Under the pieces are notes generated by a model. That model was not told the origin of the DNA and did not search any database. It saw nothing but the letters and a program-made list of their open reading frames with translations. From the IMG/VR virus record IMGVR_UViG_3300014204_000170, positions 9,717-73,716 of that record: a stretch of 64,000 bases of DNA, one strand, 5' to 3'. Below are positions 22,858-23,967 of the stretch, piece after piece. A program made the translations under genes and the position numbers. The DNA is from a virus. Each line of letters begins with the position of its first letter. Positions within the stretch are counted from its first letter, which is position 1.

Positions 22858-22931
22858 CCCGTGATAGACCAACAGTAGAGTCAAACGACTTAAAATCGTT
22901 ATAGGTAGTGGTGCAAATCCACTTCACGGGA
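22858..22931 (+). tRNA. tRNA with anticodon TAA (Leu codon UUA) but a short variable arm (type I)
   Basis: Acceptor CCCGTGA/TCACGGG, discriminator A, anticodon stem AACGA/TCGTT, loop CTTAAAA, T-arm AGTGG-TGCAAAT-CCACT. Confidence 0.5.
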
Positions 22932-22936
22932 CACCA

Positions 22937-23011
22937 CGGTATATGGCGCAATTGGTAGACGCATCCGTTTCAAAAGCGGAACAAGTGCTAGTTCAAGTCT
23001 AGCTATACCGA
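22937..23011 (+). tRNA. tRNA with anticodon CAA (Leu codon UUG), short variable arm
   Basis: Acceptor CGGTATA/TATACCG, discriminator A, D-arm GCGCAATTGGTAGACGC, loop TTCAAAA, T-arm GCTAG-TTCAAGT-CTAGC. Confidence 0.5.
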
Positions 23012-23041
23012 CATAGTCAGGGTCATTCCCTGACATAGTTT

Positions 23042-23112
23042 AGGAGATTAAGTTAACGGTAAACTAGGAAGCTTATACCTTCCCTTCGAAAGTTCAACTC
23101 TTTCATCTCCTA
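23042..23112 (+). tRNA. tRNA-Ile (TAT)
   Basis: Acceptor AGGAGAT/ATCTCCT, D-stem AGTT/AACT, anticodon stem GGAAG/CTTCC, loop CTTATAC, T-arm GAAAG-TTCAACT-CTTTC. Confidence 0.5.
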
Positions 23113-23113
23113 C

Positions 23114-23187
23114 CCGCGATTAGTTTAAGAGTAGAACACTGAACTGATACTTCAGATACGGTGGCGCAATACCATCATCGCGGACCA
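23114..23187 (+). tRNA. tRNA-Ile (GAT) with encoded 3' CCA
   Basis: Acceptor CCGCGAT/ATCGCGG, anticodon stem CTGAA/TTCAG, loop CTGATAC, followed by ACCA. Confidence 0.55.
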
Positions 23188-23188
23188 T

Positions 23189-23259
23189 GGGTTGTTATTT
23201 TAATGGTAGAATTCCTTCCTTGCACGAAGGAGGCATCGGTTCGATTCCGATACGATCCA
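23189..23259 (+). tRNA. tRNA-Ala (TGC)
   Basis: Acceptor GGGTTGT/ACGATCC with the G3-U70 wobble (Ala identity), anticodon stem CCTTC/GAAGG, loop CTTGCAC, T-arm ATCGG-TTCGATT-CCGAT. Confidence 0.65.
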
Positions 23260-23262
23260 CAT

Positions 23263-23333
23263 GGCCTATTCGAATAGAAGTAGTTCACTTGGTTTTCACC
23301 CAAGAAAACTGGGAGCATTACCCAGATAGGTCA
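23263..23333 (+). tRNA. tRNA-Glu (TTC)
   Basis: Anticodon stem CTTGG/CCAAG, loop TTTTCAC, T-stem CTGGG/CCCAG. Confidence 0.55.
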
Positions 23334-23334
23334 C

Positions 23335-23406
23335 GGGAGGTTAGCTCAACGGATAGAGCACAGGGTTTCTAACCCTGGAATGAAGGTCCGACTCCTTCAC
23401 TTCTCA
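23335..23406 (+). tRNA. tRNA-Arg (TCT)
   Basis: D-arm GCTCAACGGATAGAGC, anticodon stem CAGGG/CCCTG, loop TTTCTAA, T-arm GAAGG-TCCGACT-CCTTC. Confidence 0.6.
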
Positions 23407-23410
23407 CATT

Positions 23411-23482
23411 GCGGAATTAATTCACTGGTAGAATGCTTACCCTACACGTAAGACGCAGGGGGTCCGATTCCCTCATTCCGCA
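23411..23482 (+). tRNA. tRNA-Val (TAC), unusual C33
   Basis: Perfect acceptor GCGGAAT/ATTCCGC, anticodon stem CTTAC/GTAAG, loop CCTACAC. Confidence 0.5.
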
Positions 23483-23486
23483 CATC

Positions 23487-23558
23487 GCCTTTATAATTCA
23501 ATGGCCAGAATATCTCACTCTTAATGAGACTATCATGGTTCGAATCCATGTAAGGGCA
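23487..23558 (+). tRNA. tRNA-Lys (CTT)
   Basis: Anticodon stem TCTCA/TGAGA, loop CTCTTAA, T-arm CATGG-TTCGAAT-CCATG. Confidence 0.6.
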
Positions 23559-23562
23559 CATC

Positions 23563-23633
23563 GCGATGCAAATGTTACGGTAGCATATCTGCCTTCCAAG
23601 CAGAGAGAGTGAGTCCAATTCTCACGCGTCGCA
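23563..23633 (+). tRNA. tRNA-Gly (TCC)
   Basis: Anticodon stem TCTGC/GCAGA, loop CTTCCAA, T-arm GTGAG-TCCAATT-CTCAC. Confidence 0.6.
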
Positions 23634-23637
23634 CATT

Positions 23638-23711
23638 GACCTTGTCGTCTAGTTGGACTAGGACACTTGCTTCTCAAGCAAGGAACCCCAGATCATAGTT
23701 GGGTGAGGTCA
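23638..23711 (+). tRNA. tRNA-Glu (CTC)
   Basis: Anticodon stem CTTGC/GCAAG, loop TTCTCAA, atypical T-loop ATCATAG. Confidence 0.45.
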
Positions 23712-23716
23712 CAAAT

Positions 23717-23799
23717 GGTAGATTAAACAGTAAGGTGCTGTACCTCTTTGCTAAAGAGAGTGGTCTTAGTCGATTATGTTTCGAGTACATAGTCTACCG
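23717..23799 (+). tRNA. tRNA-Ser (GCT), long variable arm
   Basis: 83 nt, acceptor GGTAGAT/GTCTACC, anticodon loop TTGCTAA, 15-nt variable arm, T-arm TATGT-TTCGAGT-ACATA. Confidence 0.5.
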
Positions 23800-23802
23800 C
23801 AC

Positions 23803-23889
23803 GGAGAATTGACCGAGATGGATGATGGTGCTCGTCTTGAAAACGAGATGGCCTAAACAGCCACGGGGGTTCGAATCCCTCATTCTCCG
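23803..23889 (+). tRNA. tRNA-Ser (TGA), long variable arm
   Basis: 87 nt, anticodon stem CTCGT/ACGAG, loop CTTGAAA, variable hairpin TGGC...GCCA, T-arm GGGGG-TTCGAAT-CCCTC. Confidence 0.55.
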
Positions 23890-23893
23890 CAAT

Positions 23894-23967
23894 AGGACCA
23901 TGGCGCAATTGGTAGACGCGTTATTTTTAGAAAATAAATCTTGAGGGTTCGAGTCCCTCTGGTCCTA
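23894..23967 (+). tRNA. tRNA with anticodon TAG (Leu codon CUA), short variable arm
   Basis: Perfect acceptor AGGACCA/TGGTCCT, discriminator A, D-arm GCGCAATTGGTAGACGC, anticodon stem TTATT/AATAA, loop TTTAGAA, T-arm GAGGG-TTCGAGT-CCCTC. Confidence 0.5.

Follow-up and report, generated by a model that had tools for sequence, protein, structure and literature searches.

Leucine tRNAs of bacteria are expected to carry a long variable arm (type II), and the question raised here is what to make of three viral tRNA genes that have leucine anticodons and short variable regions (type I). The genes lie in a stretch of 64,000 nucleotides of IMG/VR virus record IMGVR_UViG_3300014204_000170 (positions 9,717 to 73,716; hereafter the window), within an array of about 27 tRNA or tRNA-like genes that spans 20137-23967 and is encoded entirely on the plus strand; their anticodons are UAA, CAA and UAG, and we refer to them as Leu-UAA, Leu-CAA and Leu-UAG. 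An initial annotation of this DNA had considered them to be either unusual phage leucine tRNAs or tRNAs with changed identity, which could cause mis-decoding or recoding. We conclude, with a probability of roughly 0.8, that all three are real leucine tRNAs, encoded by the phage and short-armed; the first of the two options is supported by their leucine-type D-arm and elbow, the discriminator A73, the top ranks that they reach under a leucine covariance model, and their membership in a class of more than 190 sequences.

All three genes were called by both ARAGORN and the Rfam tRNA model (RF00005) as cloverleaves of 74-75 nt (Table 1; ARAGORN end coordinates run one base beyond the discriminator); the gathering score of RF00005 is 29, and the E-values for the three genes were between 1e-8 and 6e-11 in a search of 5 kb. 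Covariance-model alignment gives the anticodon loops CUUAAAA (Leu-UAA), UUCAAAA (Leu-CAA) and UUUAGAA (Leu-UAG), and variable regions of six, six and five nucleotides, respectively (AUAGGU, ACAAGU, and AUCUU), so the long variable stem-loop that characterizes type II is absent from each of them. Stem pairs are unbroken in the three cloverleaves, except for a 13:22 mismatch that is typical of the family. The coordinates, lengths, loop sequences, variable regions and A73 of the initial annotation were all correct, and folding with the covariance model returned the same short variable region and the same anticodon register. No further leucine tRNA was found in the array with ARAGORN, Rfam or our own leucine model (R1, see below), which bears out the statement that the array lacks a long-arm leucine tRNA; the only long-arm tRNAs of the array are one for tyrosine (79 nt) and two for serine (83 and 87 nt). 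The nearest relative of Leu-UAG is a 74-nt Leu-UAG in another IMG/VR locus (L007).

We compared the bodies of the three tRNAs with the leucine identity set defined for the leucyl-tRNA synthetases (LeuRS) of E. coli and A. aeolicus (PMC9976931, PMC6614811). For E. coli this set comprises A73, A14, A15:U48, G18G19, A20a, and the elbow contacts G18:U55, G19:C56 and U54:A58 (PMC9976931; summarised in PMC6614811); E. coli LeuRS needs neither the long arm nor the anticodon, and arm-less variants of tRNA-Leu are still active (PMC9976931). A73, A14, A15 and U48 (the last base of the variable region) are present in all three window tRNAs, and the A15:U48 tertiary pair would be expected to form in each of them. 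In addition, Leu-CAA and Leu-UAG have G18G19 together with a UUC T-loop (AAUUGGUAG with UUCAAGU or UUCGAGU), so that these two keep every leucine identity element that can be read from a sequence; their D-arm (UGGCGCAAUUGGUAGACGC) equals that of E. coli leuW (UGGCGAAAUUGGUAGACGC) at 18 of 19 positions. The D-arm of Leu-UAA is GAC-C-AACAGUAG-A-GUC, with C13 and A22, and its elbow has A18 and G55 in place of the usual G18 and U55.

A common architecture underlies the three D-arms: a D-stem of 3 bp, a C13 that faces A22, and a D-loop with AA at its start and GUAG at its end. Among 2,102 unique ARAGORN tRNAs from all loci that we fetched, this architecture with any base at position 13 was found in 284 of 384 leucine tRNAs and in 21 of about 1,700 non-leucine tRNAs, and its C13 version in 101 of 384 versus about 3 of about 1,700; it also occurs in 57 of the 156 leucine tRNAs without the motif by which the loci had been found (20 of these with C13). 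The class of leucine-type C13 D-arms is an operational definition of our own, not a published one. We then used R1, a covariance model of 69 distinct short-arm leucine tRNAs without the locus-finding motif, and searched the array with filters off. The three leucine genes took the first three ranks (Leu-UAG, 80.0 bits; Leu-CAA, 69.4 bits; Leu-UAA, 55.2 bits), the best non-leucine tRNA (Lys-CUU) scored 46.8 bits, and only the three leucine tRNAs of the array scored higher under R1 than under the general Rfam model. R1, which here stands in for isotype models, thus supports leucine for all three sequences, most weakly for Leu-UAA.

Turning to the codons, none of the three anticodons reads a stop codon (UAA, CAA and UAG read UUR, UUG and CUN). 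The window encodes a full-length GroEL-like chaperonin (548 aa, 44% identity to E. coli GroEL; PHROG 5725, E = 1.6e-124), and its UUA, UUG and CUA codons align with L, I, V, M or F of E. coli GroEL at 20 of 28 positions (background 30%, p = 6e-6), and with leucine, the commonest partner, at 10 of 28 (background 8%, p = 3e-5). This excludes reassignment of the three codons to a dissimilar (non-aliphatic) residue, and with no stop-reading anticodon present, the proposed change of identity leading to mis-decoding or recoding found no support.

The leucine codons of the phage, counted over 13,635 codons of long open reading frames (ORFs), are UUA (52%), CUU (20%), CUA (14%), UUG (10%), CUC (2%) and CUG (1%). 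By the wobble rules, UUA and UUG are decoded by anticodon UAA, UUG also by CAA, and CUA and CUG by UAG, which probably decodes CUU as well, whether its U34 is modified or not. Read in this way, the three anticodons would make up a near-complete leucine-decoding set, covering about 97% of the leucine codons and fitting the A/U-ending usage of the phage. The array also contains a tRNA-Ile with an encoded UAU anticodon, not the usual lysidine-modified CAU; AUA accounts for 44% of the isoleucine codons of the phage, which fits this tRNA by the same logic, as does the make-up of the whole array.

We next asked how widely such tRNAs occur, using a pattern for a leucine-type D-arm plus a short variable region (TTGGTAGACGC-N(26-30)-GTTCRANTC); in the window it matches the two expected genes, and it has no match in shuffled sequences. 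The pattern matches 106 stretches in IMG/VR and 103 stretches in GTDB contigs (one genome per species); as these collections comprise 2.9 million viral and 32.2 million genome contigs, its density per contig is about 11-fold higher in the viral one. Many of the genomic matches lie in loci with 13-34 tRNAs per 8 kb, that is, in tRNA arrays. A leucine anticodon is found on 74 of the 93 pattern-bearing tRNAs from viral contigs and on 67 of the 84 from genomes. Because LeuRS does not read the anticodon, this association between leucine-type body and leucine anticodon reflects conserved function. Including their neighbours in the same loci, there are 194 unique short leucine tRNAs, 179 of them with A73. 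Among leucine tRNAs with the AAUUGGUAGACGC D-arm, C13 is present in 69 of 103 short-arm sequences and in none of 110 long-arm sequences (Fisher p ~2e-30); position 13 is G or A in every one of the latter, and C in the three window tRNAs. All 103 short-arm members have U48, and their variable regions are 5 nt (75 sequences), 6 nt (16) or of other lengths (12). We define the short-arm class by a leucine anticodon (NAA or NAG) on a cloverleaf whose variable region has 4-8 nt, and the three window tRNAs fall within it. An alignment of 69 sequences is invariant at U8, A14, G18, A35, U48, G53-U54-U55-C56, A58 and C61 (A73 is invariant there through selection for it), with compensatory changes in 19 of 20 stem pairs and 99% of cells paired, statistics that are inflated, as is the link to the motif, by the way the class was found (by D-arm motif and ARAGORN). 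The same viral loci keep the long arm in 78 of 79 serine and 14 of 16 tyrosine tRNAs, so the loss of the arm is specific to leucine; one viral contig (L013) encodes four leucine tRNAs, all short. The short arm is a heritable, leucine-specific trait of this class, whose members turn up repeatedly among phages and tRNA arrays and often carry C13.

Three further groups of short-arm tRNAs came up in these searches. About eleven Flavobacterium species have a near-identical 75-nt short tRNA-Leu(UAG) in clusters of two to seven tRNA genes (loci L125, L127, L140, L149, L167, L178, L181, L187, L197, L206 and L209). In Mollicutes-related endosymbionts (DhMRE and a Mycoplasmataceae metagenome-assembled genome), a 77-nt short-arm tRNA-Leu(UAA/CAA) lies in ordinary chromosomal tRNA clusters (Table 1), so type I may be the form of tRNA-Leu native to these bacteria. 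Six viral contigs (L028, L030, L039, L053, L072 and L106) share an identical 78-nt tRNA with leucine-type D-arm and short variable region, to which ARAGORN assigns a four-base anticodon (aggt) in an irregular anticodon loop.

How do these genes compare with known systems? The statement of the initial annotation that bacterial tRNA-Leu is type II holds as a rule, with an exception in Streptomyces coelicolor, whose type-I tRNA-Leu(CAA) is leucylated by its own LeuRS (Fan et al. 2019, PMC6614811); Streptomyces and human mitochondrial LeuRS both accept it (PMC6614811). Like the window tRNAs, it combines a leucine anticodon with a variable loop that is short, and stands beside class II serine and tyrosine tRNAs, and it receives its leucine from a normal bacterial LeuRS, for which the number of variable-loop nucleotides matters and not their sequence (PMC6614811); this likeness is drawn from the published description. 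The two cases differ in that S. coelicolor has one type-I chromosomal isoacceptor in addition to four type-II tRNA-Leu genes, whereas the three leucine tRNAs of the window are all type I and phage-encoded, and in that A73 is no identity element in S. coelicolor, where charging depends on features of that particular LeuRS (PMC6614811). Type-II tRNA-Leu (E. coli leuW and phage T5 tRNA-Leu(UAG), both 85 nt) has a D-arm near-identical to that of Leu-CAA and Leu-UAG (leuW differs at 1 of 19 positions) and shares with these two G18G19 and the T-loop, and with all three window tRNAs A73, A14, A15:U48 and the anticodons, but carries a variable stem-loop of about 15 nt that the three lack. Animal mitochondrial tRNA-Leu also has a short variable region and leucine anticodons, with A73 and A14 as identity elements (PMC9976931); its D/T elbows are degenerate and served by a dedicated mitochondrial LeuRS, in contrast to the fully bacterial elbow of two window tRNAs, and the leucine tRNAs of the window must depend on a bacterial LeuRS. 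Phage suppressor or recoding tRNAs of gut phages (PMC10879173) are likewise phage-encoded, stand in arrays and can alter decoding in the infected cell; they read stop codons (PMC10879173), whereas the three tRNAs discussed here read sense leucine codons.

Short leucine tRNAs are also annotated in cultured phages: Stenotrophomonas phage DLP_6 (GAG and CAG, 74 nt), Cronobacter phage LPCS28 (UAG, 78 nt), Vibrio phage JSF10 (UAG, 74 nt), Gordonia phage Keelan (UAG, 75 nt), and several Streptomyces, Gordonia, Arthrobacter and Microbacterium phages. These records give the plain label tRNA-Leu and leave the missing arm without comment. The DLP_6 genes resemble those of the window in having the D-arm GGCGCAAUUGG(A/U)AGACG(C/U) with C13, a 5-nt variable region ending in U, A73, and a location in a phage tRNA cluster. 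The cultured-phage genes differ from those of the window in anticodons and hosts, mostly encode CCA, and are only about 75-80% identical to them. What was already known, therefore, is the type-I tRNA-Leu of S. coelicolor (PMC6614811) and these uncommented annotations in GenBank phages; no description of short-arm tRNA-Leu in phages was found in the literature searched, which included a survey of prokaryotic tRNA arrays and was incomplete in coverage, and, within the same incomplete coverage, we found no prior description of how widely the class extends among phages and arrays, of its specificity for leucine, or of the C13 signature.

Several observations weigh against taking all three genes as leucine tRNAs. 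E. coli LeuRS could not leucylate the type-I tRNA-Leu(CAA) of S. coelicolor (PMC6614811), and because of this failure one cannot take for granted that a given LeuRS will accept a type-I tRNA-Leu. Leu-UAA, with A18 G19 in its D-loop (AACAGUAG) and G55 C56 in its T-loop (UGCAAAU), is without G18 and U55, and a crude nearest-neighbour isotype assignment by global alignment gave no clear leucine call for it (the lysine and cysteine controls failed too). The GroEL codon test compares one protein with one comparator, and low-level ambiguity is beyond its reach; to this is added the inflation of the class statistics noted above.

The view that the three tRNAs are charged with another amino acid, so that UUA, UUG and CUA are mis-decoded or reassigned, could appeal to the absent long arm, which is the hallmark of bacterial tRNA-Leu, to the atypical elbow of Leu-UAA (A18 and G55), and to the blindness of LeuRS to the anticodon (PMC9976931), so that a leucine anticodon is no guarantee of leucine. 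We consider it very improbable, since A73, A14, A15:U48 and the leucine-specific D-arm architecture are kept in all three, the three genes head the ranking of the independent R1 model, the GroEL codons fall mostly on aliphatic-type positions with leucine as commonest partner, and the leucine-type body goes with a leucine anticodon in about 80% of cases across the class. It is also unlikely, though not to the same degree, that the genes are decaying, or encode RNAs that resemble tRNAs, cannot be charged by the host LeuRS, and act as decoys or have no role. The failure of E. coli LeuRS on the S. coelicolor tRNA would fit this idea, as would the presence of several atypical tRNAs in the array and the fact that the array does not belong to a conserved core, being absent beside the homologous gene in more distant relatives. 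Decay is, however, hard to reconcile with cloverleaves that are intact apart from the family-typical mismatch, with the compensatory changes and invariant positions of the class, with three anticodons that form a complete set fitting the leucine codon usage of the phage, and with the recurrence of whole sets of short leucine tRNAs elsewhere, such as the four in L013.

A further explanation is compatible with genuine leucine tRNAs and concerns why the arm was lost: arm loss and the change to C13 may have been selected to evade host nucleases or toxins that recognize the class II variable arm, in which case an armless tRNA-Leu would sustain translation once the tRNA-Leu of the host had been destroyed. 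A precedent is VapC52, for which tRNA cleavage in the variable or anticodon loop is described (PMC13273310); the roughly 11-fold higher density of the class in viral contigs, the location of many genomic cases within tRNA arrays, and the armlessness of all three leucine tRNAs, which jointly cover nearly all leucine codons, point the same way. We regard both parts of this explanation, evasion and sustained translation, as doubtful. No bacterial defence targeting the variable arm of tRNA-Leu was found in the literature searched, serine and tyrosine arms are kept in the same arrays, where the requirements of the synthetases alone would explain the pattern, and short leucine tRNAs are chromosomal in Mollicutes-related endosymbionts, where it is simpler to invoke genome reduction. 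On the simplest reading, arm loss was a tolerated deletion, since the arm goes unused by LeuRS, whereas the seryl- and bacterial tyrosyl-tRNA synthetases use theirs.

For the three genes as leucine tRNAs, the following course can be proposed. The array would probably be transcribed from sigma-70-like promoters, and the transcripts would be matured by host enzymes, since CCA is not encoded. Bacterial LeuRS ignores the anticodon, and that of E. coli reads A73, A14, A15:U48 and the D-loop/T-loop elbow (PMC9976931); from the identity elements retained in the three tRNAs we infer that the host LeuRS charges them with leucine, and Leu-UAA, Leu-CAA and Leu-UAG would then act as the phage's own leucine decoders, with whatever advantage this may bring.

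The window has a G+C content of about 31% and belongs to an uncultivated tailed phage, since it encodes a portal protein, a large terminase, a major head protein, a GroEL-like chaperonin and helicases. No close DNA relative of the window was found among GenBank phages, nor any near-identity DNA match of the array, nor, by blastn, of Leu-CAA alone; the large terminase is less than 30% identical to any GenBank phage protein. In IMG/VR, relatives have head proteins that are 63-91% identical, on contigs of up to about 100 kb. No tRNAs were found in the fetched flanks of relatives (38 loci with relatives of the major head protein and seven with relatives of a 1081-aa protein); in more distant relatives there are none in the 7-10 kb upstream of the homologue of the 1081-aa gene, and the two closest contigs stop at the place expected for the array, so that its absence is established for the more distant relatives only.

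Within the array, which has a G+C content of 38-41%, above that of its flanks, ARAGORN called 21 tRNA genes on the plus strand (20137-23968). Together with a tRNA-Trp gene elsewhere in the window, the array covers all 20 amino acids. No tRNA of the array has an encoded CCA (the discriminator is followed by C in all of them, mostly by CA), and therefore addition of CCA by the host is needed. The first tRNA (Tyr) is preceded, at a distance of 16 nt, by a promoter-like site at which transcription of the array possibly starts; it is a pattern match only, and the regional total of such sites is little above the shuffled expectation. Two ORFs with HNH-like motifs flank the leucine genes, one a short way upstream of the Leu-UAA/Leu-CAA pair and the other directly after Leu-UAG; neither has a match in Pfam. 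For a further ORF of the array, encoding a HAD-like hydrolase, no relatives were found in IMG/VR. Interleaved HNH genes are also seen in the comparable tRNA region of T5, and amplification of tRNA loci has been demonstrated for SegB, a homing endonuclease of phages (PMC13096335). Overall, the array looks like an acquired, mobile-element-like cassette. A 66-nt Met-CAU-like element of the array has a 7-bp acceptor stem, A73, the anticodon loop CUCAUAA (CAU, Met or Ile2-like), a reduced D-arm and the T-loop AUCAUCA, and might be either the missing tRNA-Met of the array or a degenerate copy.

The A18/G55 combination of Leu-UAA is common to eight other tRNAs of the array (Table 1): nine tRNAs have G at T-loop position 55, and every time there is A at D-loop position 18. 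The tRNA-His has A18 A19 with G55 U56, and in the other array tRNAs, leaving aside the Met-like element and the atypical Glu-CUC, GG goes with U55 or C55. The pattern resembles covariation of the 18:55 (and 19:56) elbow contact. Five of the nine were missed by ARAGORN. Among 1,869 ARAGORN tRNAs of the fetched phage and array loci, 26 (1.4%) have a G55 T-loop (UGC…; for example in L114, L145 and L226), usually with a D-loop without GG; the share of about one third in the window is unusually high by comparison.

Table 1. Positions of the features discussed (in the window, unless a locus is named); R1, covariance model of short-arm leucine tRNAs.
Feature	Position	Strand	Source	Details
Promoter-like site TTGACA-17-TATACT	20093-20121	+	consensus scan	11/12 matches
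HAD-family hydrolase ORF	20536-21216	+	PF08282, E = 3.5e-10	
tRNA-Arg(UCG)	21518-21589	+		G55/A18
tRNA-Asp	21713-21783	+		G55/A18
tRNA-His	21786-21856	+		G55/A18
Met-CAU-like element, 66 nt	21961-22026	+	R1 only, 23 bits	folds stably (z = -2.8)
Thr-UGU-like	22097-22168	+	R1 (23 bits)/direct reading; not found by ARAGORN or, at E <= 1, by Rfam	G55/A18; 76% identity over 76 nt to L013 7226-7301; T-loop UGCAAGU; discriminator U
tRNA-Cys	22173-22246	+		G55/A18
160-aa ORF, HNH-like	22310-22792	+	motif by eye	…EFHHID…N…CKKHHNDK…
tRNA-Phe(GAA)	22783-22853	+	Rfam	G55/A18
tRNA-Leu(UAA), type I, 74 nt	22858-22931	+	ARAGORN, tRNA-Leu(taa), 22858-22932; RF00005, 22858-22931, 49.6 bits, model positions 1-71	acceptor CCCGUGA/UCACGGG; T-loop UGCAAAU; G55/A18
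tRNA-Leu(CAA), type I, 75 nt	22937-23011	+	ARAGORN, tRNA-Leu(caa), 22937-23012; RF00005, 22937-23011, 54.3 bits, model positions 1-71	D-arm UGGCGCAAUUGGUAGACGC; A14, A15, G18G19; T-loop UUCAAGU
tRNA-Ile(UAU)	23042-23112	+		
tRNA-Ile(GAU)	23114-23184	+	Rfam	G55/A18
tRNA-Glu(UUC)	23262-23333	+	R1/direct reading	G55/A18
tRNA-Gly(UCC)	23563-23633	+	Rfam	
tRNA-Leu(UAG), type I, 74 nt	23894-23967	+	ARAGORN, tRNA-Leu(tag), 23894-23968; RF00005, 23894-23967, 57.6 bits, model positions 1-71	D-arm as Leu-CAA; T-loop UUCGAGU; A1-U72
85-aa ORF, HNH-like	24044-24301	+	motif by eye	HHIVPKSRGG…N…H
tRNA-Trp(CCA)	45999-46069	-		
GroEL-like chaperonin	47500-49146	-		
Endosymbiont short tRNA-Leu, L143	5962-6038			
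Endosymbiont short tRNA-Leu, L150	3225-3301			NZ_LN828718.1
Endosymbiont short tRNA-Leu, L131	5790-5866			CP125275.1

For the phage of this window, then, there is no sign of codon reassignment, and the three genes are best seen as its leucine decoders, fitting an A/U-rich codon usage. In textbooks and in the main experimental paper (PMC6614811), short-arm bacterial tRNA-Leu is presented as a Streptomyces rarity. Our survey finds more than 190 distinct short-arm leucine tRNAs in phage contigs, tRNA arrays, a few reduced bacterial genomes and several cultured phages, whose hosts include Enterobacteriaceae, Vibrio, Stenotrophomonas and Actinobacteria. If the adaptive reading is true, many bacterial LeuRS must accept type-I tRNA-Leu, contrary to the impression given by the contrast between E. 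coli and Streptomyces. Two questions are raised by this: whether ordinary bacterial LeuRS charges short tRNA-Leu, and whether the loss of the arm protects against tRNA-targeting defences; both are directly testable with the cultured phages.

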